In this document: piece after piece, positions 9,737-58,043 of the stretch
How positions within the stretch are numbered: the first letter of the stretch is position 1
Layout: each line of letters opens with the position of its first letter
Assembly: GCA_045837725.1 (NCBI GenBank)
Contig: JBEWZL010000011.1
Span: forward strand, 434,001-498,000
Length of the DNA stretch: 64,000 bases
From: Vermamoeba vermiformis
Taxonomy: Eukaryota
Reading direction: 5' to 3'
Notes under the pieces: model-generated
Databases searched by the model: none
What the model was told of the DNA's origin: nothing
The model's input: only the letters and a program-made list of their open reading frames with translations
Translations under genes and position numbers: made by a program

Positions 9737-11620
9737 ATGGCTTTTAGTTTATTAAACAAGCGTGTATTTAGTTTGAGTGCGCAGATGCACTTTGTCCCTA
9801 AGCGGACATTTGCCACCGCCGGCAAATTATTTGCACCTGCTGCTATTGGTGCCAGCAAGGCTCCTAAGGGCTTATTTTCGAATACCAAGTAAGAATAAAT
9901 GAAGTTTATTGCCGTGCAAATACACATATTTTTTGTAATTCGGATCCAAAATTATTTTCTCGCTTGTAAAAATTTCAAAAATTAATTTAATTATTCTTAG
10001 GAGCAACCAAACTCAATTAATGCTTTCAGCACCACAAAAGTCAAATTTAAACTTTTCAGAAAAAGAATTTAAGGCATTCTGGTTTGCCAATACAGCTGCC
10101 GTGGGCTTTTTAAGCGCTCGAGGCATGGCTTTCACTCGCCGACGAAGAAGAACAGCCGTTGCTACACAAGAAGAAGAACAAACTCAACAACAAAACCAAA
10201 CTATGGTACGTCACGATCTTTTTGTTGCGGATTGACATCCAGATCGCTAAGCTCAACATTCCTAAAATAATATACAATATCATAATATAAGCGTCATTCT
10301 TAAAATTCAATTTCACGTGGCAATTCGTAAAATTGCAACTGGATCTGAAAATGAACTCACGGCTGGAGAAACGGAGATACTCCAATTAAACTAACAATAC
10401 AAAATAATAATATTAGAGGTGATATTAATTATGACATTATTATTTTAGCAACCGTACGAGCAACAACAACAACAAACATCTCAATACGGTCAACAACAGT
10501 ACCAACAAGACCAACAACAGCAACAAGAGCCGGAATATGCTGAAGGCATGACGACTGGCGAGTTACTGTAAGTCACGTGACTATTTAACGTGTTGTGCGT
10601 GAACTGCCAAAGCACATTTATTGACACGTGGATCTACCTCAGGACCCCACAAGTTCAAGCTTATGTTAGCAAAGTATATAGATTTATGGCCGGCATGACT
10701 GGCGCCGCTATTGCTGGTGGCGTCGCTGGTGCAGCACTCGGAATCCCGCCTTTGCTCGGTTTCTTGGGGTGAGTCAGATCCGACCCGAACATTGACACTT
10801 CGAGGGACTAACTTTTTTTGTTAAAATGATAGTGGTTTGGGCTGTTTGCTCGGTGTCATGTTTGCGCCACGCGAAAAAGTTCGATTACGCGAGTTGTTGG
10901 GCTACGGCTTTGGTGCTTTGCAAGGAGCCAGCATTGGCATGTTTGTCTCATTCTTCAGCCCTGGGTAAGTCCCTTTAGAATAATCGTCTAATAACACCAA
11001 CATTGACACGTGTCACGTAGTGTCATTGCCGCTGCTGCCCTGGGCACGTTGGCTATCTTCGGTGGCTTCAGTTTGGCCGCGCTTCGTGCTGATCGTGCCG
11101 CGTACATCAAGTACGGAGGCATTTTGTTCGGCGCCTTGATCTTCCTCGTAAGTATTATACGGAATTATATGATATAGATGCTAGGGACTAACATTGCATT
11201 AGGTTCTTGCTGGTCTTGGAGGCATGCTCGCTTCATACATGGGCTGGGCTAGTGCTGGTTTTATGAAGGTATGTAATTCAACTCGAAAAAATCTCCCGTG
11301 CAATCTCGCGATTTAATTTTATATTCGTGCGCGGTAGTACTTTCAAGGCTAATTATTGCTATTATAGGCCCTTTACAACATTAACTTGTGGTTCGGTCTC
11401 GGTCTGTTCAGCGTGTTCATCAGCTTCGATACTCAACGCATGATCGACAGTGCTTACCAAGGCATCACTGACCACGTCTCTGACGCGTTGAACATGTTCA
11501 TGAGTACGTACTGGAAATTTATTACCGTATAAGGAAATAACGAAAACTAACCGTCCTTTTTTAGACTTGTTCAACATTTTCATTCGCTTGCTCCAAATCT
11601 TCGGTGGTCGTGACGAATAA
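9737..11620 (+). CDS. Bax inhibitor-1 family membrane protein, GHITM/MICS1-like, with predicted mitochondrial presequence
   Basis: Basic, acid-free N-terminus MAFSLLNKRVFSLSAQMHFVPKRTFATA. Gly/Ala-rich TM helices. C-terminal BI-1 signature FISFDTQRMI...DHVSDALNMFMNLFNIFIRLLQIF. Confidence 0.85.
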
Positions 11621-11725
11621 GATTATGCATTTTTAACTCTGTTTATTAATAAATTTTAGTTTTTTACATTACATAACAGATCTGGATCTTCAAACCGTTA
11701 ACCGAATTGATATTGGCACATAGTC

Positions 11726-14700
11726 TTACATCATCAAACAGCGCTTCTTGTCCTTGGCTACTTCAGTCTGATTGAAAAAATGAACAAGAGCAAGATCCAA
11801 CGCTGTATTGATCACTTTTTCAACATTGTAACCGGTCAACGAACTGAACGGAATAAAATCTTTAGCTCCAATTCGTTGACGAAGTTCTTCTGCCTAGCAA
11901 TAGGTATTCATGAGACTCAGAATATTTCATTTTTCTGAGAATTAATTGTTGGATCTTTACCTGCTCATCGGTGATTGCCTTCAAATTTCTTTCCCTCAAT
12001 AGCTCAAGAGTAGAAGGGTTTTCTCTATAATGGGCCATATTTCAGTAAGAGTCACGGCCAAGAACAAACATTGTACTGACCTCAAATCTGCTTTAGATCC
12101 GACGAGCAATCTAACAGCGTCTGGAACGTGATGTGTAACTTCAGGATACCACTATATCGCATTAATATACATTGAGAAGACTTCATTACCTTTTCTGTAA
12201 TGCTCGCGTAAGAAGCCGGTGAGATAAATGAAAACCTGCTATCCAGAGTTAATTCGTCAGATAATTAAATTAATATAGGATTAATAGAACTCGTACATCA
12301 TAATAAAAACATCGGTGCCGGGGTAGCTCAAAGGACCTTTAAAGTACATCCGTTAATTTACCGCCACAGTCTCAATTTTTGTCTACTTACGGAGTCTGTC
12401 ATAGTCTTCGCCACCTCCACAAACGTCCCATAATGAAAATCTAGCACAATAGTCGATTACTAACTTAAATTTCTCTTTAAAGCAGTGCGCATCCAAACTT
12501 ACGCAACCGGGATGTTATTATGAAGGATCGCTATCAATGAAGTATTAACTTCCTATTCTTAAGTAATGGGTGTAATAACTTACGCACTGTAACATTATCA
12601 AAAACAGTTGGAACGTAGTCATCTAAGGAGATCGGATCAGATCAGCCGTTACACGAAGTACCATGAGCACTTACCAGGAAAAACTCCGCTAGTGTATCTC
12701 ATAATGAAGCATGTCTTGCCAACTACATCAATGAAGTTAGTCGATTAGCCAAAGCAACGTAGATCTGATAAAGGTTTGTACCTGCACCGCATCCGACAAC
12801 CATGAGCTTAATCGCCAAGCCTCGCTGTTGTGGTCCAGTTTCCCACGGTATTTTTGGCTTATTTTCGACTTTAACGACTGCATTGTAAGAGCAATTAGTG
12901 TCTGAGTGAGTGTAGTACACTTTTTACGTACGCTTCAGAAGATTTTTGTAATGCTGAGCTGACTGAACCTTCAAATCGGTCATTTTGTCTAAATAAGATA
13001 TTGTTATGATAAAGCGTTACAGAAGGTCACCTACCTGATTCCGGGTTCACGATCAGATCTCGCCACTAAATAAAGTATTAGATATCAGAGTATTATTACA
13101 GTCATCTGTCTTACTAAATAAGGCTCGTCAGTAAGTTGTTTCCATTGTTTGCTGACGGAGTTAGCTCGGGTCAATGAGACCAGATCCAGTTTCTCGAACA
13201 CTTTCATAAGAATTTCCGTCGGTATCATAGGCACGAGATTGATACGAATAGGTATCTTAACGAAGTCATTGAAGGCTAGATCTTCGTTATTGCGTCCACC
13301 GAATACAAGCAAGAAGCCTTGAAGTGTGAGAGCGGAGTGAAAGTAGCGAGGAGCAGGGGTGTTGTGGCTTTTTTTGTCGCTTGTCAAATTCTTCCAGGAC
13401 TTCTTGGAAAGATTGAACGACCACAATTGATTGTATGCTTCTTTGCCATTCGTGCCTCCAAACATGAGAAGTGTTGGTGCCAAGTCACCACCGACCCAAG
13501 TCCACGTGTGACCGTACCTTCATCGCATTAGCTTACAGATACCAATATTCATATTATAATCGTACCTTGCAGATGGTTTAGCACCCTTCACCTTGACTTC
13601 TTTCCATGTATGATTGACTGATATGACTATATTAGTACGATATGACAGTGTCACGAAGTCACTCACTCAAGTCGAATTCCCACACATTGTTATCTGCATC
13701 ACGACCTCCAAACAGCATCATCTTGTCGTGATATATGACACACGCGTGATGGAAGCGAGGAGAAGGTGTGGCTTGTGACTTCGATTTGATGAGTTCCCAC
13801 GAGTGTTGTTGCAAGTCGAACATGAACACTTCGTTGCTCGTGAAGCTATCATTGTCGTAGCCTCCAAACACGACCTGATATATTAAGGATGCGTTACAAT
13901 AGTAGCACTATATGCTTGTTCCAACGTACCATCTTGTCGTTCCAAACACAAGCAGAGTGACCATATCTTCGTGAGGGAACTGTTCCTGTCACTTCAAGTT
14001 TGACCCACTTGTTCTTAGCTGAGATAATAAGCACGTTCCGTTAGTTTTATGCGTTATATTTGCACGTGCTTTGGTGCCCTATTGGTGCACGTGATCGTTA
14101 ACATACTCGTGTCCAAACAATGAACATCATTGTAGTACCCGTTACTCTTGCCGCCTATTTATGCTATGACTTAGCAACATGGTTAATGATAATCATAGTA
14201 TTGTTTACCAAAGACGTAAAGACACTTGTTGAAAACAACAGTTGAATGGAAATGTCTTCCGTGTTCGAACAATTTCATTTCTGAAGGCGGCAAGAATGAA
14301 AGGCTTTCTGTAGTCGTATTAGTATGTTATTATAGAGCCTTGATATGTTATTATCTTACCGAAATCGAATTCAAGAAGCTCTCGACAGAATTGACCCTTC
14401 GCATCTCCTCCTCCTGAAGCGCGGTAAAGTCAAAAAATATTTATTAATATAATATTAATAATTTTTTACTTACCAAGCACATACATCATCGAGAATACGC
14501 CATTCGTCACTTCAAAGGCTTAAATTTGAAAAAAAATTTAATAATTAAATGAGGGAATTAAAAACTTAACTTACGCGGCATAAAATTTTTTTTTCGCGCT
14601 TAAGTTATGTGGCGTAAAAAATTATTCCTCAAATGGGTTTCAAACTTAACTTATCTTTTTTCTCAAATCAACCGCAACCTTGAGCGACGCTCAAAAATTA

Positions 14701-18700: not shown

Positions 18701-18879
18701 TTACCAGTATGTCCATATCTTCCTGATGGCTCGTATTTTTCGTTTTTCTCGTATAATGTAACGTTTCTCCACGTATCAGCTTGAATTTCCAATTGTTCTT
18801 TCTTCACCACCTGCGAGCCTTTAGCGATCGAGTCACTTTCGTCTTCAGAGTTACTAGTATCATGTTTGTTGTGTTCCAT
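15739..18879 (-). CDS. Kelch-repeat / F-box / Rho-family GTPase fusion protein, copy 2 (CaaX CMLM)
   Basis: Same exon structure as copy 1. [30 protein letters not shown], ends KRRCMLM*. Has a duplicated 28-nt micro-exon and one GC-AG intron. Confidence 0.82.
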
Positions 18880-22100: not shown

Positions 22101-22193
22101 CCACGTATCCGCTTCAACTTCGAACAGCTGCTCTTTATTTGATGATTGCGCACTCGTTTCTTCAATAGAGCTATTATCGACACTATGCTCCAT
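19109..22193 (-). CDS. Kelch-repeat / F-box / Rho-family GTPase fusion protein, copy 3 (CaaX CMLM)
   Basis: ATG 22193 (MEHSVDNSS). Same Kelch, F-box and Rho exons. [13 protein letters not shown]. Ends KRRCMLM*. Confidence 0.85.
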
Positions 22194-25700: not shown

Positions 25701-26797
25701 TATTTTGACCGGAGTTTCAGCGAATAATCATGCAGCGGCTAGAATTAGCGATTGTACGTTCATTAATTGCCAAGATCAAGGCGTAATGTTCGAGAAGGGT
25801 GCTAGTGAAAGCATATTAGAAAATTCAACGGTTATTTTGAGCGAGTCTGCACTTGACATTAGAGAAGCATGGGTCCACGCTAAAAATAACAAATTTTGTT
25901 ACAATAGCAACGGAATATTCTCAGCGGAGAATTGCAAAGTTACGTTGACGAATAATGAAATTTCAAACTGCAAATTGGCCGCTGTCGTTATGCGCCCATT
26001 TTCAAAATTCGTATTAACCAATAACATATTTAAGAATAATAACGTTGGTACGTATAACTATGACACGGTATTATTATGGATTATAACAAACGTGTTTTAG
26101 GGTTGCAAATAACGCACAGCAGATCCGCTCCGGTGATCGATGTTGAAGCGACAAAATCTCAGAACTCATTTATTGGAAATCAAGAAGACATATCGGAGAA
26201 TTTTAAAGAAGAGGGCGACACTGACTTCGTAAAGGGTTTGAGTCATTTTGATAAAGGCACTGCAAACGACAGTACGTAAAAGTGACACTTTGACACGTGT
26301 CATAAAAATGGATCTGACAAACTTTAATTTCAGCTTCTGCTGCCGTTAAAAGAGCCTATCAACTTAATGTATGTACGTTCTGTACTACTGGATATGATTA
26401 TCATTTCCAAACTTGGTTCGAGTGCATCACGTGTGGTCTTTCATCGTCCTCGGGGATCTGCTCCGTTTGCAAAGATATTTGTCATAAAGGCCACCAAGTA
26501 ATACCAACACCTCAATTTACGCTATTTTATTGGTAAGATTAATATTATCTAATTTTACAAAATTTAAATTTAAATTTTTATTTTTGAAGCGACTGTGGAT
26601 CCACCCGAGATTGCAAGGCAATCGACAAAAGTGTTGCACAACGACTTAAAGATGAAATGGTGCAACAAGTCGTCAATGATTTTGCTATTATGGACTTTCC
26701 AGAAGGAGAGGAGGAAGATGCAGAAGAGGAAGAAGAAGAGGAGCAATTAGAAAACGAAAACTTGGATGAAAACGATGAAAATAACGATCTCGACTAG
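22762..26797 (+). CDS. FBXO11-like protein (F-box, parallel beta-helix repeats, UBR-type zinc finger, acidic tail), interrupted by a transposon in exon 1
   Basis: F-box LANLPPEILHHLLSVMD...YWKQIY. Removing 22996-24774 restores KPYETILEAI...TIFIAPGVYEE. Beta-helix repeats (ISDCTF, LTNNEISNC, LTNNIFKNN). UBR box CTFCTTG...WFECITC...ICSVCKDICHKGH...FYCDCG. Confidence 0.82.
22996..24771 (+). mobile_element. PIF/Harbinger-ISL2EU (PHIS)-type DNA transposon, 1776 bp, 3-bp TSD ACT
   Basis: Imperfect TIR TGG(A/G)TTGTTTCACG at both ends. ACT duplicated at 22993-22995 and 24772-24774. Excision restores the host reading frame. Internal IS5/DDE_Tnp_4-type transposase. Confidence 0.9.
23091..24622 (+). 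pseudogene. Spliced DDE transposase (HTH plus DDE_Tnp_4-like domain, N-terminal zinc-finger-like motif) with one frameshift near 24145
   Basis: CNLC...H...C motif. HTH-like LWIFLVRLRQ...VAWLFSCSAATILR. Catalytic motifs VIIDGSEQ, FSGKKAKHT, GAKHD, IGADKGY, RTIVENVFAQIK. The frame shifts at CTCTTTTCGTGA. Confidence 0.8.
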
Positions 26798-27088: not shown

Positions 27089-30000
27089 ATGAGAAGACCA
27101 AGCTTCGTATTTTACGCGGTCTTTTTCTACCTCAATTACTACCTTGGTACCTTTTGGTACTTGATCTTCACTGCTCTTATTGCCGTAGGCCTTGCTTTCG
27201 CAATTAAAAGGTATTTTAAATTTAATATAAATATTTTTGACGCTAATTAATCCGCCTAGATTCGTATTTTGGAAATATTTAACGCTTGATCCTCCATCCA
27301 ACGCCGCAGTTTTGATTACCGGCACTTCAACTGGCATAGGAAAAGGATTTGCACTTCGGTTAGCTCAAGCAGGAGTGACTGTAATTGCTACTGTTCGTCG
27401 TCAAGAGGATGCGGACAAATGGCAAAAAGAGCATCCAGAACTCGTTAAATTCATTAAACCCGTTATTTTAGGTAACGCAAAATAATATAATAATATTATT
27501 ACTAATTATGATGCTATTTAGACGTTTCAAATGAGCAAAGTATCGTAGCTGCAGTTCCGATCGTCAAAGAAATTTTAAAAACCGAGCAAAAACAATTATA
27601 TTCTGTAGTTAATAATGCCGGTATCGATGAGATTTGTCCTATGGAATTATTATCGAAGGAAAACTTCGATAGAGTGATTGGAAGTAAGCCAATATTTTCA
27701 TGAACTACATCTGGGATCTTTCACTAACTTTTTAAAACTTCAAAAGCGAACTTATGGGGTCCTATTGCCGTCACTAAAGCCTTCTTGCCGTTGCTAAGAA
27801 TCGAAAGGTATTGTAAAAATGCATTTGGGTATATTTGGGGGGCATTGGGAGGATTATTTGATGGAAAATCAATGTTTTGTAAGATTTTAATAAAATTTGA
27901 TGTTGGCCCTTGAAATTACTTGCAAAAATCTGCAAATTTTCAATCATTGCTGCCCCATTCGGAAATCATTAGCAATTTCCAAATTAGGAAGGTTGCTAGC
28001 ATAAACAATGCTTTACAGCATGTACATACCATTCCAACTTGTCCCGTCAAATTCTGTCAATTACTAACTGTTTGCCAGAGTGCTCCAAGGTGGAAACAGG
28101 CAGTTAGTGTAACTAGCAAATATAACCATATATGGCAGGAGGTTATGGACATCATAAGTGGACCTTTACAAAAAACAATGATTTGAACTTGCCGCGCCAA
28201 ATTCCGGCAATTACTAACGACTTCCTTGTTGCTCGTAATCCTTGTAAATTCTGTTTTTTAACTGAAATTTCGGGATTTGACAGTAATTACCAAATTAGGA
28301 AAGGATGGGGCAGTTGGCATTTGTTGCACCATGGTTACTAAAGTTGAAACTTGTCCCGACAGTTTTTATCAATTACTAACGATTTGCTGATCACTTTACT
28401 ATATTTCTATATTAGGCAAGTAGAAAACTCAGTTTTCACCTGGGAAGTGCAAGGCATATAAATGATGAAGGGAAACTGTTAGTAATTGCCAGATCATATG
28501 CACACAAGTGCCAAGAGGAGTGTTTTGCAAATGTCCACCTCATGGACCCCTGATATGCACCACAAATTTCCTTTTTAGGCTATTCCATGCTATATACTTG
28601 CTTTTTGCACTGTATTTGCCCTAGGAACACTCAAGTAAGCATCAGACTCCAATTCTTTTGTGTACCATGATCTGGCAACCTTCAAAGCATCAAATCATGA
28701 TTACAAACCAGTGAAACACTTCCTAATATGGGCACCTTAGAGTAAAATGGGGTTTTCCCAGTTGATTTTCAAGAAAACAGGCTGTAACTTCAGCTCTACG
28801 GCATATTTTGATGTGCCGTTTTTTTTGTTCAACTTGCACTTCCATGTACTATGGGTTTTCTGAATAAAAAAATGAAATATACCCAAATGCATTTTTACAA
28901 TACCCTCCGATAAGACAATACACTCCTAAAGGCCGAGCTAAAGTATTGTAAGTCTGTTCCTCATAGGCGCGAACATAGCGGTTGACACGTGTCATTTTTC
29001 TAGCTTTTTGTCAAGCGTCGGAGTTTATCTTCCGCTCGCGTTTAACGGAATTTATGCCGCTAGCAAAGTAGTAAGTACTATAATATTTAATTATCAAATT
29101 TTAAGTCATTCTAACAAATTTTTTAGGCGCTTGAATGCGTTGCGGATGTACTTAGAGTTGAGGTCAAACCGTTTGGAATCGATGTCTCTGTTATACAACC
29201 TGTACGTATATATTCCTTAACCAACTGGAAGTCTACACGGTAGACGTACCAGAATTTGGACATGGCTGCTCCCATTTCTCATAAATAAGCTCAATAGTAG
29301 CCCAGGCTATCGTCTGTTGAGTAAATCTGAAGCAAACTGACTATCCCCAAACTCTCAGTGCCTACACACGAGGTTTTTTGCGTCAAAGCTGCCTCAGGCA
29401 CTTTCGTGCTCATGCTACACCACAACGTGTTACATGCTACTAACAGTTAGCCTAGCAGGTGATTATGTGAATAAATCTGAAGCAAGCTGACTATCCCCAA
29501 ACTCTCAGTGCCTACACACGAGGTTTTTTGCGTCAAAGCCGCCTCAGGCACTTTCGTGCTCATGCTACACCACAACGTGTTACATGCTATTCACACAATA
29601 GTTAACTGATAACTCCTTGTACAAAACTTAAAGATTTACACCTTTGAATTTCTTCCAGCACTTCTTGTGTAAGGCAACTTTGCACTGAATGCACTTGTAG
29701 CTAAGGCAATTAATTAGTTTGACAAAAGTACACCTACACATACTTACAGTGTAGAAGAAGATATCTTTTGAGTTTGACAAAAGAAACAACGCTTGGAGTT
29801 GCCAAATTCGTACGCACAGGTGTGGGTGTATGGATTATGCTTTCCACTGGCGCGCACAAGATCTAACGCTTCTATTGTGTAGTTTCGTTTCCTTTTTGAT
29901 TGGAATTCCTCTACCAGGGAGCGCGCTAAATTGGCAAGAAATTTCTTGGCAGGAATATCACTGTTGGTGAGTCTTTTGAAGAGTGTTTCTGCCTGAACTT

Positions 30001-33889: not shown

Positions 33890-36800
33890 CTAAGCTACTG
33901 GTGTATGAGAACTACTATTCTCGGAAATTTGAACGTTGAATCCCAGATCGCGCAACTTTTCAGCGTCTTCTTTTGAAATGCAGTCGCTTAATATAGTAAC
34001 TTTTCTTCCTATTAAAGCCAAGCTTATCGTCCTTAAATCTTTCATAATTTTGTCCGTGACATTAAGTGTCACTCTTTCGAGGCCCAAGAACCTCAACTTC
34101 AGTTGCGGAATAATGTACGGCAATAATTCCGCTGCATTTCCAAGCTGCTGGCAAAGGCTGAGATCCAGTGTTTGGAGATTAGGACAATTTTTCAATAACG
34201 ATCTGGCTGCTTTGATATTGATGTTGTTTTTGACCATGAATAACGATTGCAGACTGGCACTTGCCAAATTTGGCGTGTAAGAATTGTAGCACATGTTGAT
34301 GATCGCGAGAAATTTCAATCCTGACAGCGCTTTGAATCCATCGTCGGTGAACCCCTCGCAAGCAACAATACTAAGGTTCACTAGGCTAGGACACTTCTTT
34401 GCAATAAGTTTCAGCGTCACGTCTAAAAAAATCAGGATCAGACTTTGACACTTTATTTTGACACGTGTCAATGATGACGTACCTGTCAAGCGATTGTTGC
34501 CGTCAATTAAAAGCTCTCGAAGACCTTCTCCGCACCGTTCGAATAAGGCCTCCATGCCAGAATCTAATTGCAAAAAAGTCAGCGAAAATTTGTGTTGGGA
34601 GAACGTGCTATGGCATGACTTTTGGTCACGTGTGTAAAGTTAGTAATTAATTCTTACCTGTCACTTTATCACAGTACGTGATGCTCAACGAGCTCAGTTG
34701 ATTGCATCCGATGCCAATTTGTTCGAGCATTTTGTCGTCGATCAAAGCCAATCCGTCTAGTGCTAGTGACTGCACTTCAGTTCCGTACAAAACCAAAAAA
34801 TTCAAGTCGCGCAATGTGATGGCGCTGATAGATGGGTTAAACACGATATCAAAACAGCTCTGAATGATGCTCGGATGAACTGCTTTCTTCTTCTCTTTGA
34901 TGTTACGGATCAGCTCGAGCGTCTTTTCTTTGTTTTTCAAGACTCGATAGACTTTGATAGCTTTCAAAAAAAACGTATCTGCTAGCTCTGATTCGACTAT
35001 AAACGCTGTTTCTAAACAAATCTCCACGTAAAAGATCAACAATGTTTCACTGAAAAATATCTTAGTCACGTGGCCAAATAAAGATAGATCTGGTCAAGGC
35101 TTACCTTCCAGGATAAATTCGCAAAGCGTCTTCCATCATGCCAATAGACTGCTTTAATAGGCTCATGCGTTCAGGTTGATTTGGTTGCTGTCGTGCACGA
35201 AGAACGAGATTACGTGACTCAGCAATGGAAACGACTGGCAACCGTTTAATCTTTGCAGTTATGCTTTCTATATCGGGTAATACGAAGCAGTAATTGGCAG
35301 GGTTTTTCGCGACTTCTTCAATAGAGGCTTGTGAAAAAATTATTCCGGAAAGTTCCTGTGTGGATCTGGTTAGAAATGTTGCGACGGAATAACTTTGTCA
35401 TACCTGAATACGGCGGAATAATCTATGGAACCCAACCTTCTTGATAAGATATTTGAGTGGGCTGGTAACGATATCCCGCAGATCGTCGTCTGGAACAATC
35501 GATGTATATTTTTTGGCAGATTGACACGCGGTTTGTTGCGAGCACGAGCACATAAATCCGCTTGCTGTATTGGCGTGATGCGATACTTTGTGTCCGTGAG
35601 ACTCATGGCACTGTTTAATGCACACGGAACAAATTCCCTTGGAAAAAAAATTGCTGTTAGAACCCACTTTTCCAAATATGGCAATACGTTACCTTAGCAC
35701 CCGTAAGCCCGCAACTGAAGCACTTGAAAGTAGTCATCGGGACACGGATTTCTCCGTACTTTGCCGTCGGACAAACTCCTTCTAAGATCGCAAAGGCGTA
35801 CTTAGTGGACGGATCTGTAGCGTCACGTGTCAATTCTTCCGCGGTTGGAAATCCTTCAAAACTGTCACGCAGAGTCTTATGCAACAGATGCCAAAACTCG
35901 TTAGTCGATTCTTTGTATTCAAATGTTCCTAGCACTTTGTTGCACATGTGCGCAATCAATTCTTTGTACGATTGCTCGGCCATGGATCTGACGCAAAAAC
36001 CGTGAGTTACCATATTAGGAAATAACAATTACTTACTGTAATGACCTCTTAGCGTCCCTTAGCATGTGCCACAAGCTATTTTTGATACTTCTGGCCACCA
36101 TTTCCAGGAGTAAAATTAGCTTGAAGTACGAGGATAGACTGTGTTTGTAGATCTGGGCCAGATATCTGAAGTGCATTAGATAACCTATATTTCTCGTGTA
36201 GCGTTCATGAAAAGTACCTTAAGTTAACGCCCGACGCGTGCAAATATTCTAATACTTCTTCCATCGTCAATTTTTCACTGTGTCTGTCGAGCAAAGTTGC
36301 GACCTTCGGGATAACTCCGGTCAACAAATTTTCAGTGGCCGCTCTGATATTTGCAGCATGCTCTTCTCTCTTAGGCTCGTGTATATCAAAAGAAGGGCTA
36401 CAGGCGTCTATATAAAATGTGTCAGTCCTCGCAGATCCCGATCTGAAACGGGCCTACCTGAACTCAACGGCTTGCTATAGCTCTTTACAAATTCTGGTCG
36501 GAACATCTTAAACAAGAAGCACCCTCTAATTCTCTTATCAGGAAAGGTCGGTGGCATCAATCGAGCGGTGTCTGCAAATGACACGTGTCAGATCTAGGAT
36601 CGGTATCGAAAAATGCTTAATATACTTACCAAGCAGGTAAAATCGTCCATCTTCACCTAAATGACCTTCAATATCTACAGGGAATGATATTCTTTTCGCT
36701 GCAAACCGTTGCATGCCAGCTGTGTGTTCGGCAAGGTTCAATCGTTTAGCGAGCTGTTCACGATATTTTAGCAGGCTTGTTAAATATAACACCGACTTAC

Positions 36801-38201
36801 TTCATTCATTTTCTCATTGAGGTCGTTATTAGAAGCCTTCACAGTCCTTAAAATCAAAGTTAATCACTATACTATAATCGCTATTCAACTTACTTTCCAC
36901 CGTCATCCGATCCATACATGAGTGTTGTATTTGACACGGGAAGTAGTGCAATGGCTACTAAGCGGAATCCAAGATAGTCGATCTACGCGTACATTAAGCC
37001 ACGAGAATATTAAGACAATCTTTGACTTACTAAACACATGAGTGGCGTGCATAGTCCTTCTATGTCCGCGTCTTGCACGCTCATTAAGCACAACATTTCT
37101 TGATTGGCTGCCTAAAAATACGCTTCTATTAGCTCAAGTTTATTATATCAGACAGTCTTACCTTCATAGCAGCATGATCTCCTCCATAAATGCCCTTCCA
37201 ATCGACTGCAAATTTGAACAAGATACCGTTGTAGATGAACTTTTCACCTCCTGCGCTTCCTCCCACAGCAAAAGGCTTGATTGTCCTGAACTTATTCTTC
37301 ACGAAGACCTCGGATATGATAATTTTGCCGTACATTTGAGCTATAGAATGCATCAGTAAAAATTGAATATTGGGTCAAAGTGGCGTACCTGTGGACTCGA
37401 AGTCTTGCGTCAGACTCGCAATTGATTTGTATTTCTTTAATTGCTCAGCGACAGTCGTTGGTTCAACTTCCATAACTCGCCTATATTCCGCGTTCCAATC
37501 ACGTGGGTTTCCTAACTCGACTTTGATTTTGCTGCTGGTCCGTGCCACTTTCTTGAGTTCTTTGCTCTAAATCAATACGATAAGCAATAGTATTTCGATA
37601 TAGTACTATTTCTAAATAGACTTACGAATTTATCGAGAAGACCAGAAATTTGTTTTTCTTTGTCGGCTGGTTCAATGAGGTTGTCTTTGAGTAGTACTTT
37701 AATATCTGTTACTAGAGTTTCGCTGTCACTGATCACACGTGTAGTGCACATTTTTTGCTGCTCTGAAGCAGGAAGATCGTCATTTAGGGTAAACCTAGTC
37801 GCAGTCGAATCCGTGCGATCGGATCTGGCCGACGTGACTTCTTCATTAACTGGCTCGAGATGATGATGATCTACGTCATCCCTGAAGCCAGTTGGATCGA
37901 ATTGTGTTTGTTGTAAAGCTGTTTGTAATACTCGTAGTGACTTCTTATGGAGCAGTTTTCTGTTTTGAAGGTTTGGACGAGATGGCAAAGAGAGCATGTC
38001 CAAACTCTTTTGGCCGATATACGACAACCTATGTGTTAATAACCTTGCATTTTCATGGTGATCGTATTCTACGTCGTCGTCATTTTCTTCTTCAGAGGAG
38101 CTGTAATCGACCTCTCCGTCGAGATCAATGGGTTCGCCCGTAAAATAAGCCATATTATCTAAAAAAACATCGTCAATATATTTCTCTAATTTTTCATGCA
38201 T
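33890..38201 (-). CDS. Clu-domain protein with UBR-like zinc finger and C-terminal LRRs, paralog 1
   Basis: RDWNAEY, GGEKFIYNGILFKFAVD, YLGFRL, YGSDDGG, PVDIEGHLGEDGRFYLL (Clu-type core). CFSC...ICSVCIKQCHESHGH...FMCSC. F-box-LRR-type repeats (CPSLVNLSIVACEGFTDDG, CPNLQTLDLSLC). Confidence 0.78.
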
Positions 38202-48006: not shown

Positions 48007-48443
48007 ACAAAAAACTTAAAATTCTAACGTCTGTTTATTTAAGAATAAATGGTGAATTATAATAGTTCCTTTTTATGCAGCTCAAACAAAATGTCAGTTT
48101 GCCGAGCACGGCTGAAATACATCAAGCACGTGCTCTGGCTCCTCAGCAAAATAAATTTTCTCCGCGACCGAACATTAAATTTCTCGAGCGTATTATCGTG
48201 ACACTAGCTCTGGCACATACGAGGTATCGTATTTAGTTGCATATAAATACTAGTTTACGCGAACCGAAAATAGCTATTTTGGTTAAGAATTTAAATTCAA
48301 ATTGCATCATTCAAGTCAAAACAACTTATTTTATTTAAAAGTAATTTTAAATAATACTTATAATAGTATATTTACCATTGAATGGTTGCTCTTCGATTCA
48401 GTTTTAGAAATTTTAAAATTAATTATTTTATCTTTTAGGCAAA

Positions 48444-51400
48444 ATGCAAGGCAGCTATTTTTCTTCGTTTAATGTTAGTAGTGCTATCACCTCTCGGCCA
48501 GACAGTGATTCAAAATATTCATCTTCTTTGGATGTACCGACTGGATCACCTCTCCAGCCGTTACCTTACATCGCAGAAAAAGAACAGTTTGGATTAAGAA
48601 AACCTAATAATAATCAACGTCGATTGTCATCTATTGAAGAGGACTATATAAGCTCATCAGACGAGCCAAACAGATCGGACTCGAGAAAAGATCTGCCAAT
48701 CTTCGATTCATTAGACGATATCAACTCGATTATAACGACTGCAAATTTAAAACATTTCAGCCTGAAGCTAATCGAAGATAAGACGCTGAACGAATTAAGA
48801 TCTGCCTTGCAAAAAGAAGAGGAATCCGATGTGTCATGTTATATGACAAGCATTCCCGTGAACAATAATAGTGTCAAAATTGGAAATAGTGAATCAAAAA
48901 GGTATTCAGACCCGAGTATACTCAGCGAGGGTTCAAAAGACCCAAAAAATAAGTCGAAGAGGAAAAGCACTCAGATCAAGAATCGCTCAGGCAGCCTGTA
49001 TATCGAAGGGGGATTGAATATGAGTGGTCACGCATATAGAGAAGGTGATTTATCAGGTTCAGAGAGTGAGTCGAGCGAGTCAAGCGAAGAAACTCAGATC
49101 CACTTTCAAATTGACAAAGATCTGACCTCGTTTGAGCAACAAAAGGCTTGTATTGCCAAATTAACGAGTCTAAGCGAGCAATTAGCACTTAATACCGAGA
49201 AATTATTGCAAAATTCGTCTTTGCAAAGTGAACAAGTGAAAGAAATCACAAAAGCCTTAAACGGACTCGTACGTAATAATCGAAATATCTTTCGAGGGCC
49301 TTCTAACGTTTATCTTTTCTTAGAAAAAAGAGCTTCAGTCAGTTGCTGCGGAGAGTAAAAACATTAAGATTGATTTGGGCAATCCACGTGACTGGAACGC
49401 TGAGTACCAAAAAGTGTTGGAACAACCAGCCACTACAATCGAACAAAAACTACAAAAATATCAATCTATTGCTTCATTAGCACAAGACTTCGAATATACA
49501 GGCAAGTTGTGTTTGACGCTGCAGATGTGACACGTGTCACCCAAATTTTCTGACTGACATTTCGTTTTAGCCCAACTGTACGGCAAAATTATCATCACCG
49601 AAGTGTTCTTGAAGAACAAATTCAGAACAATAAGACCGTTCGCAGAAGTGGGAGGAAATGCAGGAGGTGAAAAGTTCATCTACAACGGTATCTTGTTCAA
49701 GTTTGCAGTCGATTGGAAAGGTATCTATGGCAGTGATCATGCTGCTATGAAGGTACGGCCGTCGCTATTATCGAGGAACTTCAATCTTTATAATATCTTT
49801 TGCTAGGCTGCCAAGCACGAGCTGTTAGGATTGATGGCCATTCACGATGCAAATATCGAAGGAATCTGCACGCCTCTAATGTGCTTGGTACGCACGACTC
49901 TCTATAAATTATTCTTTTCCCTAACAATCGATACAGATCGACTACTTAGGCTTCAGATTGATTGCTATCTCGTTGTTACCTGACATTTCGAAGTCGACAC
50001 TCATCTACGGCTCGGATAGCGCAGGATTGTGAGTGCTTCCATCTCATTATATATAATGCTAATGATTAATTTTCTTGATTAGGACCGTAAAGGCATCTAA
50101 CGCGGATTTTAATAAAAAGATGGAGCAGCTAGGCAAAAAATTGAACTTGGCCGAACATGTCGCAGGAAGAAATGTGCTTCAAACACAAAAGATATGGATG
50201 CCCGTTGATGTCGAAGGTCATTTATCCAAAGACGGACGATTCTACTTGTTAGACACAGCTCGATTAATGCCCCCGACTTATCCTGACGACTCAATTCGAG
50301 GCTGCTATTTGATTCGTCTATTTAGACCTGAGTACGTTCGACGATATTCTCAGCCTTTGAGCTCAGGTTAGTTATAACCATTAGCATCAATCTGGCGAAT
50401 GAGACTAACCGTTGTTGAGTAGATGCTTGCAGCGTATGTTTCGACTTGCACGAGCCAAACAGAGCTCAGCACAAGGCTCACATCAAAGCAGCTACGCAAG
50501 AACTAGTTAGAAAGTTCATTCCGAGCATTGTCGTATGGCGAGAGAAGCACGCTGAAGTGTTGGAAGTGCCTATCTCGGATGTTATTGGATACTTGCACGC
50601 ATTCGGAGTCAACTTGAGGTAAGAGGCACTCTCTTTAGAAGGCGCAGGCTCAAATTGACTCGTGTAGGTACTTACCCGCTGTTCGTCGTGCAACGACTTC
50701 AGGCAGTTTGAAACTATTGCTACTTTTGGAAATGGTTGCACGTGGCATTAAAAACCATTTACTTCACTTGCTACGAGAGGCCAAGAGGACTTTAGGGTAC
50801 GTCCAACTTCTGAAAGATACCGCATGGTACGCTTTTGACACGTGTCAAACAGGTCTATGAGCGAACAATCCTACCGTGAGTTGCTGGCTACAGCCTGCAA
50901 CAAATACCTCGGTGAAATGAACGAGAAGAGCACCAATGACACGTGGGATCAATTACGTGCCAGGCTTCGTACGACATTCGTGGACTTCCCAGATGATGAC
51001 GAGCTGCATAATGACTTGATGGAAGCGCCTGTCAAGTATCAATTGGCCATTGAACAGGGCATATGTCCTACCATCAAGTGGCGAGAGCCTTTAATTGCCC
51101 CTATGCAAGCTTGGGCTTGTAAAACTTGCGGCATTGAAGTAAGTGGCATCAAAAAAAAACGGTTCAAAACAGCACTAATTGAATTACAACAGGAAATTTG
51201 TGGCGTTTGCATCAAAAAGTGCCACAAAGGCCACGAGTCTGGTCGTTGCAGTATTTCATCGGGATTCGTGTGCTCGTGCACTACAAAGTGTTCGCATTGC
51301 GAGTTCAGTAAAAGCGACGTCGACTACAGCAAGGACTTGGACGGCAGTTTGGTGCATCCATTGCGGTACATCATTACCAAGATGGGTATGAAGAAGCTTT

Positions 51401-52877
51401 TCAATAGAGTCTCAGTAAGTATCATAGTAATGATCCAATGAGAGGTTACTGATGTGATTGCCTTAAAAGGAGTTAACAGGCATTGAGTTCTCGAAGACAG
51501 CTTTGCACGTGATAAACAAGTCACGTGCGTTTTTGACGTTGTCGGACATTCAAGGCATTTCAGTGAAAATTAGACGTCTTCCGATTGTAGCCATAGCTGA
51601 GGCTAATAACCTGGCCCTACGTGCACAATTGCTTGATAATCAGGATGCACGCTTAAGTTTACTTCGTCAAGCGATCCACTTGGCAGACTCGGCCTCGTCA
51701 ATCTATCCTAGGTACGCACGAATTAAGTCTTGGAATTCTTTGCTAATGTCGGCGTAGTGAACAAATGATGCGGTTCACGACAGAGCTATGCTTAGAAGCT
51801 GCGTTTATTGCATCAAAAGAAGAGGCGAGCTTGTGCTTTTTCGAAGTGGCTAAGACGTACAGAGTGTTTGGAGACAAAAATAGTGCCTTGCAGCTGTTAG
51901 AACAGATTGAAAAGAAGAAGATTGACGTTGATCCGAAGATAATTGATATCTGCTTGGACTTATTAATGGAGCCAACTGCCACTTCCCCAATCACGAGAGC
52001 GACCTTGGATATTTTAAAGTACCACGGCAAGCACCAACAAACTCTTCCTTTGGATGGCTTGCCCTTCGTTGATGACGAGACTATGAAGTTCATTGCGACG
52101 TACAGCGGCTGTTCCACGTTGAGAATTGGATTCTGCACAAAAATAACTGGTAGGCCGTCGATCATAAATCTTTCAATAAGCTAACGAAAATTATACAAAG
52201 ATGATGGATTCTGCTATATGATACGAAACATTGGTAAAAACTTGAGAGAGCTGGTAATCGATGGCAATAATTTAACTGGTATGAAGGGGTAGATCCGCGC
52301 GACTTTTTCTGAACTTCTCTTTTATTTAGACACATCGTTGAATGCTATTGCCAAAGAGTGTCCCAATCTAATTAACTTGAGCATGACTGCGTGCGAAGGT
52401 TTCACCGACAAAGGCGTCAAAGGTCTTTCAAAAATGCCGTTCCTCTCGAGGTTGAACATGAAGTACTGTCCTAACAATCCAAAATTACTCATTCCGAGTC
52501 TTCAAATCTTATTGTTAACGAAGAGCAATATCACTCTGAAGAACCTCAAATCAATCTTGAAGAATTGTCCGGCTCTGCATACCTTGGATGTGAGCGGATG
52601 CGATGGTCTCGACAACGTGGCAGAAATTCTACCACTGCTAGCCAAGAGAGCATATTCATCGTTAATAGCTATTGACGGTGTATTGTTTAACTTGAACGAC
52701 AAGATAGTTAAGCAGCTCAGTCCGAGGCAGATCTTGAACTGGGGTCAAGTCCGACTGATCAGCGAGTCCCTTCCCGAAGAGTTTTTGCAGAAGCTGCAAG
52801 AACATAATTTCACTGTTCTAAGAAACGATTTGACGATTCGAGTGCCTTCAGAGAAATTTTCATTGCGCAACAAATGA
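48444..52877 (+). CDS. Clu-domain / UBR-like zinc finger / LRR protein, paralog 2
   Basis: Same motif order as 33890-38201: RDWNAEYQ, GGEKFIYNGILFKFAVD, PVDVEGH, CKTC...ICGVCIKKCHKGH...FVCSC, LRRs. Confidence 0.78.
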
Positions 52878-53470
52878 ACGACTTTCAATTGGCACGTACG
52901 ATTTTGTATTCGGCAACAACGAGTTCAATTTGATCGTGCAGGAGATCTACGATTACATATCATGGAATTTCGATGGATTGCATAGTCAAACGACGTTACC
53001 CGATCCTTAGACGTTGATTGTAAATAAATATAACTAACACTATCAAAAAATGAACTAATACTTGTAAGTTTCATCCGCAGGCGAAATTTAATACCAAAAA
53101 TAGAAACACGTGCTTGCTCGTCAAAAAAAGGAATTTGATTTAACCATAATTGATTAAGACCGAGGAGTACTTTCAATTAACAATAGCTGCGTTATTTGTG
53201 GTAAGGGTCACGTTTGGCACTTTAACAATTAATTATATATATTAATCACAATTAAACTTTGGAATTGCAATTAATTATTAAAGTTTATTTTAGTGAAATA
53301 TATTTAGGCTGTGCGCTATAACTGTATTTTTGCTAATTTAACTGTCCTAACATTACAATGCGTAATGTTAAGTTAACAAAAATTAATAAAAAAAATGTGG
53401 GTTGACCCACTATAACTGAAATCGAGAATAAATAATACCATCGATATTTATTAACAAATTAATTGCAGAC

Positions 53471-56400
53471 ATGTCCAAAAACAACCGATATCTTGCATTT
53501 TTTCCTGACAAGTCCAGCGAATCTGGACCCAACTCCGAACCATCGATAAATGGAAGAAATAAGCCAACAAAATATGAAATTCTTCCTAAAATTGGCGGAT
53601 TTGGAAACGAGAAGCTTGGCTTACGAAACTCTGGCGTTTTTTCAGACGATGATACCAGTGTCTCTGAAGAACCAAGTTCAAGTGGTCCTATTTCTGCGGC
53701 ACCAACGCCTCGTGGAGGTTCAAAAGAAGATCTTTCAAAGCTGATGCCGGTTTACCTCGATATGTCAAAAGTCGTAACAGCTCCTTCGCTACCCAAAAAC
53801 AAAAGTTTAAGAACGCTAAAGCATACATTATCCCGACGATACGACATTACTGGGTACGTCAACGACAGAGCGAAAATTGAAAGTCCCAAGTCACCAGGCG
53901 GGTCAAAGACTGGTTATGCGAATGATGGCGCAGCTGCATATATGAACGACAAAAAGCCAGTTACAGTTGTTTATATGGAGAAGAATCAGCATCAGCCAAC
54001 AAACTGGTCAGATTCAGAAGATTCGGAATCAAGTTCCGACGAAGAAGTGCCAAGCTTCCAATTAAACGACGAGTACACCTCCGCTGAACAACAAAAACAA
54101 TGCATATCGCGCATATCCACTGCAAGTGCTGAAATGAAGTTAAAAGCGGAAACTTTGATCGGAGACACCAAATTGACACCGGATCAGAAACTGAATAAGT
54201 TAGCAGCTTTATTAGGCGATTACGTAAGTACATACTATATGTTATAATGATATTAAATTGACGCTCTTTAGAAACGTGAAGTTGAGCAAGTGACGCGTGA
54301 AAGCGATCGTGTTAAGGCGGATCTTGGCAACCCTCGTGACTGGAACATGGAGTACCAAAAGATTATTGAATCACCTTCTGATACAGTAGAAGACAAGCTC
54401 AAGCGATATCAAGCTATTGCAAGTTTAACGCAGGACTTTGAGTACACAGGTAATTGTCAAAAAGTGCTGTGTGACACGTGTCATCGAACAACATTTTTGA
54501 CGTTTTCCTTTTATAACAGCACAAATGTACGGTCAAATTATCATTACCGAAGTGTTCTTGAAGAACAAATTCAGAACAATAAGACCGTTCGCAGAAGTGG
54601 GAGGAAATGCAGGAGGTGAAAAGTTCATCTACAATGGTATCTTGTTCAAGTTTGCAGTCGATTGGAAAGGCATCTATGGCAGTGATCATGCTGCTATGAA
54701 GGTAAGACTGCCCATGCCAATAATACTTAACTATTATTTTGTCTATTATCGTTGGCTATTCTTTTTAAATATGCACGCAACACGTGGCCTAACATGATTT
54801 TCAGGCTGCCAAACACGAGTTGCTCGGATTTATGACAATTCAAGGTGCAAGTATTGACGGTGTTTGCACTCCTTTAATGTGCTTGGTACGTCCAGATATC
54901 ATAAATTCGGTTCTTGTCTTGCTAACTAATCGGATCAACCAGATCGACTATCTTGGGTTCAGATTGGTCGCAATCTCATTAATTCCTGGCATTTCAAAAT
55001 CAACGCTCGTATATGGTTCGAATGATGGTGGATTGTAAGTTATATTCAAACGAGCAACTCATACACGGATTTCTAATTTTTGTTTAGAACTGTCAAAGCA
55101 TCAAATGATGATGTCAATAAGAAAATGGCCGAGGTAATATAACAAGAATTATTAATGTATTAAATATTAACTCTATGTGATTAGTTGGGCAAGAAATTGA
55201 ATTTGGCTGAGCACGTGGGAGGAAGAAACATGATGCACGTGCAAAAGATATCAATGCCCGTTGATATTGAAGGGCATTTAACTACTGATGGAAAGTTCTA
55301 CTTGTTAGGTACGTTTTAATTGTTATCTCCAATGATGGCTCTAACTTTCATGAACGTATCCAGATCCCGCTCGATTGATGCCGCCGACTTACCCTGACGA
55401 ATCTATTAAAGGCTGTTATTTGATTCGTCTATTCAGGCCTGAATTTGTTCATAGATATTCGAAGCCATTGAGTTCAGGTAAAGTGTCAAAAAATGACACG
55501 TGTCAAGTCGTGACTTTTATGACTTACAACTACCTTACAGACGCGTGCAGCACGACGTTCGACCAGCATGATCCGCAGAAGGCCCAGCACAAGGCTAACA
55601 TCAAATCGGCGACTCAACACTTGATCAAGAGTGTTATTCCCAGGACCGCCATTTGGCTCGACAAGCACGCTGAAGATCTTCAATTGGACATCGCAGAAAT
55701 TACAGAATATCTTCACGCATCCGGTGTTAACCTTCGGTAAGCTACCTAGTATACATAGCCTAACTATCTAATGTTAATATTTTATTAGGTACTTGCCCGA
55801 GGTTCGTCGAGCAGCTGGATCTGGTTACTTGAAAGTGCTTCTTTTGGTAGAAATGGTTGCACGAGGAATTAAAAATCATTTGTTGTTCCTTCTAAGAGAG
55901 GCCAAGAAGACTCTAGGGTACGTCTCGAGATATTATTTCCATTTATAGTAATCGTTGACACGTGTCACAGAACTATGGCTGAACAAGCCTTCCGAGAAAT
56001 GATTGCTAATGCGTGCAATATGTACATGCCTTCGCACCCTGAGTACAAAAAGACGTGGGAAATGTTACGCAAACGATTGGCTCATGCATTTGACGACTTC
56101 CATTCAGAATGGGAATTCCAAAATGACTTGATGAACCCGCGCGTGAAACATTTCTTGGCCGTGTATCAAGAGATCTGTCCTACTGTCAAATGGAGCGAGC
56201 CTTTGAACGTTCCGATGGTCGCTTACCAATGCACGAGCTGCTCAATTGACGTAAGTTCACCACTTACCAAATAAGGCAATTGACACTGACTCCCTTTGAT
56301 CTTTTAGCAACTGTGCAGCGTGTGCGTAAACACGTGTCATGCAGGCCATAAAGTTGAACGTCTTAATGTTTCAACTGGATTTATGTGCGCCTGTGCCAGA

Positions 56401-58043
56401 TCTAACAAATGTCAATCGGTGGAGCGTAAAAATACTGAAGGCGCCGACGAATGGGACCACAACGCTGAGCAGCCCTTCTCATATTTAATGCAGAAACTTG
56501 GCGTGAAGGCTTTGTTTACCCGTGTTGCGGTAAGAATTTTTTGACACGTGTCAAGCAGTGGATCTAACAACCTGTGTAGCAATTGACAGGCATCGAGTTT
56601 TCACGAACAGGTCTTGATGCTGTTGACAGTGTCGGCTACTTTAAGATTTCAGACGTGAAAGGTTTTTCCGCTAAAATCAAGCGGTTGCCAGTCGTTGCAG
56701 TTACCGAGGCAAAACTGCTCGCACTTAAGGCTCAAAATAGCAATGATCCTGACGAACAATTGAGTTTGATGCGACAAGCTATTGCATTGACTGAAGAAGC
56801 CTTGGCGATCTATCCTGGCAGGCAAGATATTTTACGAAATTTCAATTTTTTCACGGGATCTGATCTAACTTTTTTCCTTCCGTTCAGTGAACAAACATTC
56901 ACGTTCTATAATGCTATTTGCTTTAATACGGCATTGGCGTCTCCTAAAGAAGAAGCGGATAAACTGTATTTCAATGTCGTGAAAGAATACCGTGTGCAGA
57001 AGGACAAAAAACGAACGGAAGAATTGCTCAACGAAATCCAAAAAAGGAAATTGACGGTACATCGAAGAGTCATCGACGTGGCCTTTGATATTTTGATGGA
57101 TCGATCGATCAGCCCTATCACCCGCCAGACCCTCGACTTTTTGAAATTTCACGGCAAACTCATTCAAACACTCACGCTCGATGGATTGCCTTTTATGGAC
57201 GATGAAACACTCAAATTTGTTGCAGACAATTGTCAGTGCTCAACGCTAAGCATAAGTTTCTGCGATAAGTTGACAGGTAAGATCCGTTCATGAACCAAGT
57301 TTGGAAGTTTTTTTTCTGATGCCTTTTTTAGACGAAGGAGTTTCGTATGTCGCAAGAACTATCGGCAAAAACCTCCGTGAATTAGTCTTGGACGGCAACA
57401 AATTGACAGGTACGTTTTTTCATTTGACACGTGTCAAATATTTTTTTCACAGTAAAATGTCAAAGTGTCAAAAAACTCGAACTAATAATTAATTGCTAAT
57501 TGATTTTTAGACGCGTCAATCGATGCTATTGCTAAAGGATGCCCATCACTATTGAACTTGAGTATAGCCAATTGCGAAGGATTCACGGACAAGGCATTCA
57601 AGTCGCTGTCAAAGCTGCCCTTGCTGTCGCGCTTGAACATGAAGTATTGCCCGAACAATCCCAAATTTGAAATTCCGAGTCTGCAAATATTGTTCTTGGT
57701 CAAATCGAACATCACTCTCGAGAACGCCAAATCAATCTTAAAGAAATCTCCCTTGTTGCATACTTTGGATCTGAGCGGATGCGCACAAATCACTGAAAAC
57801 GCAGCGGAATTATTGCCTATTTTGGCAAAGAGAAAACAAAGCGCGATCGTGGCACTTGAACGCGTGACATTTAAATTGACCGACAAGATTGATAAGGAAG
57901 TGCGGCCTTATATTGACACTAAGGTCCAAATTTCCTTATTAAGCGAAACTATTCCCAGCGAAGACTTGCAAAGACTGAAAGAACTCAATTTTACTGTTTT
58001 AAGACGTGACATGAGCGTGCGATCGCCACCAGTGACTTTCTAA
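53471..58043 (+). CDS. Clu-domain / UBR-like zinc finger / LRR protein, paralog 3
   Basis: RDWNMEYQ, GGEKFIYNGILFKFAVD, PVDIEGH, CTSC...CSVCVNTCHAGH...FMCAC, LRRs. Tandem with paralog 2. Confidence 0.78.

Follow-up and report, generated by a model that had tools for sequence, protein, structure and literature searches.

A putative E-box-like palindromic element in predicted short introns of Vermamoeba vermiformis

The hexamer CACGTG, known as the E-box or G-box, is the kind of site bound by dimers of basic helix-loop-helix (bHLH) and basic leucine zipper (bZIP) proteins. In a 64-kb stretch of nuclear DNA from Vermamoeba vermiformis (contig JBEWZL010000011.1, positions 434,001 to 498,000; the whole stretch is called the window here, and all counts below refer to it) the same hexamer forms the centre of a 12-base palindrome, TGACACGTGTCA, which is present in 12 exact copies that all lie in predicted short introns. 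The likeness to E-box and G-box sites consists in the palindromic CACGTG core, in a dyad symmetry suited to a homodimer and in the occurrence of several sites per target gene. Here, however, all 12 bases are fixed and not the core alone, with no affinity series of degenerate flanks, and the copies occupy only short introns along gene bodies and not promoter-side DNA. The 10-base core of the palindrome, GACACGTGTC, also occurs in the plant cis-element literature.

We note that the palindrome can, by inspection, also be read as TGACA-CG-TGTCA, that is, as two inverted TGACA half-sites with a 2-base spacer. Read in this manner it resembles the palindromic TALE-homeodomain site (the TGACAGCTGTCA type), with which it shares the inverted pair of TGACA half-sites around a centre of 2 bases, the palindromic form over 12 bases and a frequent T...A extension; the intron location found here is without parallel for such sites. 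The canonical DNA of the TGIF1 homeodomain is ATTGACAGCTGTCAAT, which is bound by two monomers on opposite faces (PMC6158717). Compared with TTGACACGTGTCAA, the extended form of the palindrome described below, the TGIF1 sequence is identical at 12 of 14 bases and differs in its central GC, as opposed to the CG that forms the centre of all 12 copies here. No GC-centred copy (half-site CTGTCA) was found in the window within two mismatches.

Other described elements share individual properties with the palindrome. Highly iterated palindromes and uptake sequences of bacteria (HIP1, DUS/USS) are likewise short exact words with many perfect and few decayed copies, but they are bacterial and not tied to introns. 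With the branch-point sequence (YTRAY) the agreement extends to five of the 12 copies, which present such a sequence 12-18 nt from the 3' end of the intron, its usual place (median 16), but branch recognition makes no use of the palindrome's right half, and 169 of 181 predicted short introns do without the motif. Introners and introns resembling miniature inverted-repeat transposable elements (MITEs), for instance those of Amoebophrya, also involve a repeated, intron-confined sequence of inverted-repeat character; they are marked by sequence sharing over the whole intron, terminal inverted repeats, direct repeats at the borders and new intron positions, none of which is seen here (PMC7789003).

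In the searchable literature, which does not cover subscription journals, the exact 12-mer TGACACGTGTCA was met in virology papers only, and nothing relevant was found there on intronic palindromes or on intronic CACGTG enrichment. The element appears to be an E-box-like palindromic cis-element with an unusual distribution that is restricted to introns and perfect to the letter.

Occurrence and conservation of the palindrome

A sequence-only reading of the window had reported 12 exact copies of the palindrome, and our search returned the same 12, which begin at positions 11004, 26291, 28983, 34459, 36579, 49528, 50836, 54472, 55494, 55956, 56542 and 57425, or one copy per 5 kb. That reading put the chance expectation far below one, and this is borne out by 100 dinucleotide-preserving shuffles, in which the mean was 0.01 copies of TGACACGTGTCA and none of the 100 reached 12. 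The word and its sub-words top the over-representation ranking of 10- and 12-mers in the window, and every one of the 12 copies has perfect dyad symmetry and the central CACGTG. When up to two mismatches were allowed 15 sites were found, namely the 12 exact copies, none with one mismatch and three with two mismatches (at 35821, 50937 and 56328, all inside predicted exons); these three near-copies are at chance level, since 2.04 are expected. The extension to TTGACACGTGTCAA, or nearly so, that had been described for five copies was also recovered, with T before the motif in eight of the 12, A after it in five and both in four. A scan of the whole window against Rfam gave no match at the gathering score, and a tRNA gene scan of the window found none.

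The window is intron-rich, with about 40% G+C, and its gene models come from our own ab initio dynamic-programming gene finder, so the intron calls rest on these models and not on RNA data. The models contain 181 short introns (40-130 nt, median about 57), which account for 18.3% of all bases in the window and for 42% of the non-coding ones; their commonest donors are GTAAGT (47), GTACGT (24 of about 180 introns, which is unusually many) and GTAAGA (21). The total of 181 is approximate because the gene finder makes errors: it over-merges, joining an HMG-box gene and two CLU-like genes in one model; it called the intergenic stretches 48093-48481 and 52896-53468 introns and the in-frame intron 55478-55540 exon; and in the first of the CLU-like paralogues it invented or misplaced the introns 51525-51590 and 52749-52822, as judged by alignment to P0047, a transcript-derived protein from EukProt that is 88% identical to this paralogue.

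According to these models, which were partly checked against the transcript-derived homologue, all 12 copies are intronic, as had been proposed, and lie in introns of 50-101 nt that are GT-AG apart from one GC-AG intron (49502-49570). The count of six genes from four families in both orientations likewise stands: the hosts are a Bax-inhibitor-like gene, an F-box/beta-helix gene, a short-chain dehydrogenase gene and three CLU-like paralogues, with ten copies in + strand genes and two in a single - strand gene. The first three hosts hold one copy each, and CLU-like paralogues 1, 2 and 3 hold two, five and two. P0047 offers an independent check of the intron calls in the CLU-like family. Among the nine motif introns of the family, five junctions align to it without a gap and two show a single one-residue gap column a few residues off; the remaining two introns (49502-49570 and 54450-54519) lie upstream of the start of P0047, which gives no coverage there. 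The identity of the other three hosts is backed by exon-level Pfam matches (Bax1-I, adh_short and Beta_helix), although only in the Bax-inhibitor-like gene does the match fall on an exon that adjoins the motif intron. Because three positions are common to paralogues, the 12 copies represent nine independent intron positions, and for all nine to be intronic p is 2e-7 if the whole window is taken as reference and 4e-4 if only the non-coding DNA is.

The CLU-like paralogues, which are 47-63% identical, lie at 48443-52895 (+ strand, paralogue 1), 53469-58160 (+ strand, paralogue 2) and 33890-38201 (- strand, paralogue 3). They combine a CLU domain with a Cys/His-rich region that by eye resembles a UBR-type zinc finger and with C-terminal leucine-rich repeats, a layout that differs from the usual CLU/TPR architecture and recurs in P0047. 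In their alignment introns stand at 16 positions, and the motif is found at six of these: at column 336 in paralogues 1 and 2 (26 and 22 nt from the 5' splice site), at column 511 in paralogue 3 (39 nt), at column 549 in paralogue 2 (16 nt), at column 657 in paralogues 1 and 2 (39 and 38 nt), at column 836 in paralogue 2 (12 nt) and at column 1078 in paralogues 2 and 3 (15 and 12 nt).

The three homologous intron pairs among these keep 12 of 12 motif bases at similar offsets, and the rest of the introns can barely be aligned. Paralogues 1 and 2 are identical at 48% of their four-fold degenerate sites, and paralogues 2 and 3 at 41% (26% by chance), from which the chance that a pair keeps all 12 bases is 0.48^12 = 1.5e-4 or 0.41^12 = 2.5e-5, and this was seen three times. 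Such retention, set against 41-48% identity at neutral sites, indicates that the motif is under purifying selection, or else is actively re-created. In the column 1078 pair a second element downstream of the palindrome, AAAGTGTCAAA, is also kept in paralogues 2 and 3. Extra half-sites (GTGTCAAA or GTGACAC) stand beside the palindrome in four to five introns, and we observed such a half-site in an A-rich context (AAAGTGTCAAA or GTGACAC) within about 5-35 nt of it in introns 26272-26333, 34423-34482, 54450-54519, 55478-55540 and 57410-57510. Outside the palindrome, TGTCAAA occurs seven times on the sense strand of introns, compared with two occurrences of its complement.

The distribution of the motif is gene-specific. 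It is present in 12 of the 181 short introns, and nine of the 12 belong to the CLU-like family, to which 47 of the 181 introns belong (hypergeometric 3.3e-4; counted by independent positions, 3.9e-5). In the 21 short introns of a BUB1-like gene there is no full motif, nor even a 6-base fragment. Fragments of 7-9 bases were found in five of 53 motif-less introns of host genes and in two of 116 in other genes (Fisher p = 0.03), and this excess in host-gene introns is the pattern of homotypic site clusters.

CACGTG itself is enriched beyond the palindrome. Of its 47 occurrences, short introns hold 24 (the motif accounting for 12), exons hold 19 and the other 16 kb holds four, where 1.7 are expected; some of the 47 recur among recent paralogues, which inflates the counts. 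Intron interiors hold 23 compared with 0.63 expected, making it the most enriched hexamer there, and the 19 in exons compare with 5.9 +/- 2.3 in 500 synonymous shuffles, of which none reached 19. Plain CACGTG sites, such as those at 10574, 10625, 14088, 18209, 21529, 34627, 35067, 40431 and 54781, have variable flanks unrelated to the 12-mer. CpG depletion or decay through germline methylation was considered as a factor and rejected, observed/expected CpG being 1.02 in exons, 1.31 in introns and 1.25 elsewhere.

Placement of the copies within their introns

A YTRAY branch motif is present in 145 of the 181 short introns, with its A at a median of 16 nt from the 3' end, and TTGAC is the best branch candidate in 11 of these 145. 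Several copies of the palindrome had been described as sitting 4-9 nt before the AG, and we indeed find a 3'-proximal group of five in introns of 53-58 nt; these copies start 35-39 nt in and stop 3-9 nt short of the intron end. In this group the YTGAC formed by the motif and its preceding base puts the A 12-18 nt from the 3' end, and in four of the five it is the sole YTRAY of the intron. It is plausible that YTGAC is used as the branch site in these 3'-proximal copies.

The 3'-proximal copy at 11004..11015 (+) lies in intron 10965-11020 (56 nt) of the Bax-inhibitor-like (TMBIM) gene, where it starts 39 nt in and ends 5 nt before the intron end, with the A of TTGAC 14 nt from the 3' end; the exon downstream matches positions 95-135 of Pfam Bax1-I (E 3.4e-5). 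That at 28983..28994 (+) starts 35 nt into intron 28948-29003 (56 nt) of the short-chain dehydrogenase gene, and its TTGAC, with the A 18 nt from the 3' end, is the only YTRAY; the adh_short matches fall on exons upstream, and, as the adjoining exons are too short to match, this intron is given by the gene model only. In the CLU-like family, the copy at 36579..36590 (-) starts 39 nt into intron 36572-36629 (58 nt) of paralogue 3, whose junction is gap-free against P0047 and in which CTGAC is the sole YTRAY (A 16 nt from the 3' end). The copies at 50836..50847 (+), 39 nt into intron 50797-50852 (56 nt) of paralogue 1, and at 55956..55967 (+), 38 nt into intron 55918-55970 (53 nt) of paralogue 2, occupy a common position; in each TTGAC is the sole YTRAY, with the A 14 and 12 nt from the 3' end, respectively, and the junction in paralogue 1 agrees with P0047 at 20 of 20.

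The other seven copies are 5'-proximal, starting 12-26 nt past the 5' splice site; either their distance from the 3' end is 35-83 nt or TGAC is not preceded by T/C, and six of the seven introns have a YTRAY of their own downstream, the exception being 55478-55540. Consequently, the proposal of a strand-symmetric splicing signal or branch site survives only in part: it suits five of the 12 copies as a probable branch site, with the A 12-18 nt from the 3' end, but it does not hold for a general splicing signal, because seven of the 12 lie near the 5' splice site and six of these are accompanied by a separate branch motif. In introns this short, these two places are almost the only room for 12 fixed bases.

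Among the 5'-proximal copies, that at 26291..26302 (+) starts 19 nt into intron 26272-26333 (62 nt) of the F-box/right-handed beta-helix gene, with a GTGACAC half-site just upstream and a separate CTGAC 16 nt from the 3' end; the Beta_helix match is on an exon near this intron, which itself comes from the gene model only. The copy at 34459..34470 (-) starts 12 nt into intron 34423-34482 (60 nt) of CLU-like paralogue 3, with an extra AAAGTGTCAAAG downstream, and shares its position with the copy at 57425..57436 (+), which starts 15 nt into intron 57410-57510 (101 nt) of paralogue 2 and is followed by AAAGTGTCAAAAAA and, further on, by CTAAT branch motifs. A second common position joins the copy at 49528..49539 (+), 26 nt into the GC-AG intron 49502-49570 (69 nt) of paralogue 1, to that at 54472..54483 (+), 22 nt into intron 54450-54519 (70 nt) of paralogue 2, the latter with a separate TTGAC 19 nt from the 3' end; both are outside the coverage of P0047. 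Also in paralogue 2, the copy at 56542..56553 (+) starts 12 nt into intron 56530-56579 (50 nt), which has a separate CTAAC 12 nt from the 3' end, and that at 55494..55505 (+) starts 16 nt into intron 55478-55540 (63 nt), preceded by AAAGTGTCAAAAAA; the intron status of the last follows from the paralogues and P0047.

Intron 55478-55540 is peculiar in its own right. It is in frame and without a stop, such that retention would add 21 residues and gene finders will call it exon, and it has no YTRAY branch motif; that it might be a gain exclusive to paralogue 2 was rejected, all three paralogues carrying an intron there. GC-AG introns occur among the GT-AG ones at 49502-49570 and 56822-56887 (donors GCAAGT and GCAAGA). 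A hairpin intron of the mirtron-like kind was tried and rejected as well, the folding z being -0.45 for the 12 motif introns and 0.07 for the 169 others (Mann-Whitney p = 0.14); by itself the motif folds to no more than -3.1 kcal/mol. Finally, the GATC words CAGATC, GATCTG, GGATCT and CTGATC are 6-8-fold enriched in introns and often stand right before the branch motif (GGATCTGAC, GGATCTAAC), for example in 16656-16709, 35050-35104 and 36408-36457; they may represent an extended branch-site context.

What the palindrome may be

Dyad symmetry is meaningful only for a double-stranded target, and two readings therefore remain, a homodimer site on DNA or an RNA duplex. Our best explanation, which we put forward tentatively and at somewhat less than an even chance, is that TGACACGTGTCA is a double-stranded DNA site for a dimeric factor, of the E-box/G-box or the TALE-homeodomain type, that acts inside gene bodies. 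A homodimeric, sequence-specific protein would read the palindrome as double-stranded DNA with one monomer per 6-base half, and the element would mark the gene bodies of a particular gene set, chiefly one paralogous family, where it would possibly influence transcription as an intragenic enhancer or silencer, or by making the polymerase pause or blocking its way. Its placement in introns would follow if only there could 12 fixed bases be kept within a gene without constraining the protein, and in introns of 50-60 nt, with little free room, a copy would fall either just past the 5' splice site or on the branch site, where the YTGAC of the motif would very probably double as branch sequence.

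The sequence-only reading had offered a binding site for an abundant bHLH/bZIP-like or nucleosome-positioning factor. A dimeric DNA-binding factor still seems the best reading in view of the dyad symmetry, the CACGTG core and the conservation, and the gene-specific clustering and the accompanying half-sites fit it also; an abundant factor with a general, architectural role fits poorly, because nine of the 12 copies are in one family and a gene of 21 introns has none. Several observations weigh against a dimer site on DNA. Sites of real factors are normally degenerate, and here 12 copies are perfect and none has a single mismatch. Short introns aside, the window has about 16 kb of non-coding DNA, and none of the 12 copies is there, although this is where promoters are located and ordinary transcription-factor sites would be expected too. 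At 35 other CACGTG sites the TGA...TCA flanks are present in only four of 70 half-sites, and with no leaning towards them the 12-mer is a discrete class and not the top of an affinity continuum. Moreover, the whole case rests on one 64-kb window and on our own gene models, several of which are wrong in detail.

Short introns are usually seen as spacers that hold splice signals only. In this window, introns of ~55 nt preserve a 12-base word without change, and the word is concentrated in particular genes, though the silent sites of the paralogues are nearly randomised. If it is a protein site, then a compact genome puts gene-specific control elements into minimal introns, partly on the bases of the branch site; if it acts in RNA, it would represent a new way of linking introns. 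At the density of this window, the whole genome would hold thousands of copies.

Alternatively, the palindrome might be an element at the RNA level, whose self-complementarity would let two introns that contain it pair and so bridge introns of one pre-mRNA, affecting exon skipping, back-splicing or the order of splicing, with the left half serving as branch site in some. We regard this as unlikely, though it accounts for the restriction to introns and for the exactness. The motif is confined to sequence that is transcribed and then removed (introns have all 12 copies, the remaining 16 kb of non-coding DNA none), and its exactness is natural for base pairing, a self-duplex of two copies reaching -19.3 kcal/mol. 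Two to five full copies are present in three of the six host genes, and in a fourth a further intron holds a partial copy of 9 bases; five copies lie at branch-site distance; and GTACGT donors, for which the central ACGTGT is a possible pairing partner, are commoner in motif introns (five of 12 compared with 19 of 169 others, p = 0.011; three of nine by independent positions). Two hosts, on the other hand, have a single full copy and thus no good partner in cis: the F-box/beta-helix gene has two 7-base fragments, and in the dehydrogenase gene none was seen in the one intron examined. To act as a branch site the motif has to be single-stranded for U2; the window shows no G-U-tolerant variants, no folding signal is found within the introns, and introns this short are probably removed too fast for long-range pairing.

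In a more adventurous form, which we consider quite unlikely, the palindrome would be an intron-only "self-complementary tag", by which any intron that has it could form a 12-bp RNA duplex with any other; in introns of only ~57 nt it would form bridges much as long inverted repeats do in large introns, and would thereby set exon skipping, back-splicing or splicing order for a selected group of genes, or, as a variant, it would be a highly iterated palindrome kept perfect by transcription-coupled drive; the variant, if true, would be the first such case in spliceosomal introns.

Drive can also be considered by itself, the palindrome then being a very small selfish unit that some biased DNA process (for instance hairpin-templated repair, a site-specific enzyme or biased conversion) inserts or re-creates and that is tolerated only in introns; in kind it would be comparable to the bacterial palindromes and uptake sequences mentioned above. 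This would explain the all-or-none pattern of 12 perfect copies with none at one mismatch and no decayed remnants in eight motif-less homologous introns, the separate status of the 12-mer, to which the flanks of other CACGTG sites bear no relation, and the patchwork of presence and absence among paralogues. We nevertheless judge it decidedly improbable. There are no target-site duplications and no shared flanks, and the median length of motif introns exceeds that of the others by only about 3 nt. Homologous copies stand at near-identical offsets, which speaks for inheritance and not re-insertion, and in one pair their flanks are partly similar. The absence from intergenic DNA is left unexplained unless the process is coupled to transcription, and we know of no candidate enzyme for such a palindrome.

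The footprint of an intron-generating mobile element, suggested by the sequence-only reading, is hardly credible any longer: descent from a transposon that creates introns (an introner or MITE-derived intron), the palindrome being what survives of its inverted repeats, would suit a multi-copy word found only in introns and in either gene orientation, in a window that has Harbinger-like and piggyBac-like transposase reading frames, but it is largely refuted, since at the six CLU-family motif positions eight of 17 homologous introns are without the motif and each position has an intron in at least one motif-less paralogue, so that the introns predate the motif or are independent of it, since the palindrome is internal and not at the intron ends, since neither the intron borders nor the flanking triplets of the 12 copies show direct repeats or target-site duplications, since motif introns share nothing outside 12-14 bases and their median length (59 nt with the motif, 56 nt without) gives no support for insertion as a 12-base unit, and since described introners have inverted repeats at both intron ends and direct repeats across the borders (PMC7789003).

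Other features of the window

The Harbinger-like transposase frame (HTH_Tnp_4, DDE_Tnp_4) lies at 23731-24619 on the + strand, and the piggyBac-like one (DDE_Tnp_1_7, an open frame of 403 aa) at 29747-30955 on the - strand, in or beside the dehydrogenase gene; two direct repeat units, each about 150 bp long, accompany it around 29266-29564. In protein searches an exon of a mitochondrial carrier had four relatives only, none above 75% identity, and a Kelch/EGF exon had one NCBI protein at 99% and JGI proteins at 57% and 37%.

Three tandem paralogues at 11726-14581, 15739-18879 and 19109-22193 (- strand) show an unusual fusion of Kelch repeats and an F-box with a C-terminal domain that by eye is a small GTPase of the Rho type; about 20 introns are predicted in each, the exons are very short, some of less than 50 nt, and CACGTG occurs in them at common intron places. 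At 38994-40217 (- strand) a single long exon encodes a low-complexity stretch, rich in Lys/Glu/Ala, of a protein with an N-terminus that by eye is like FHA/BRCT proteins, and it gives rise to overlapping open frames on both strands.

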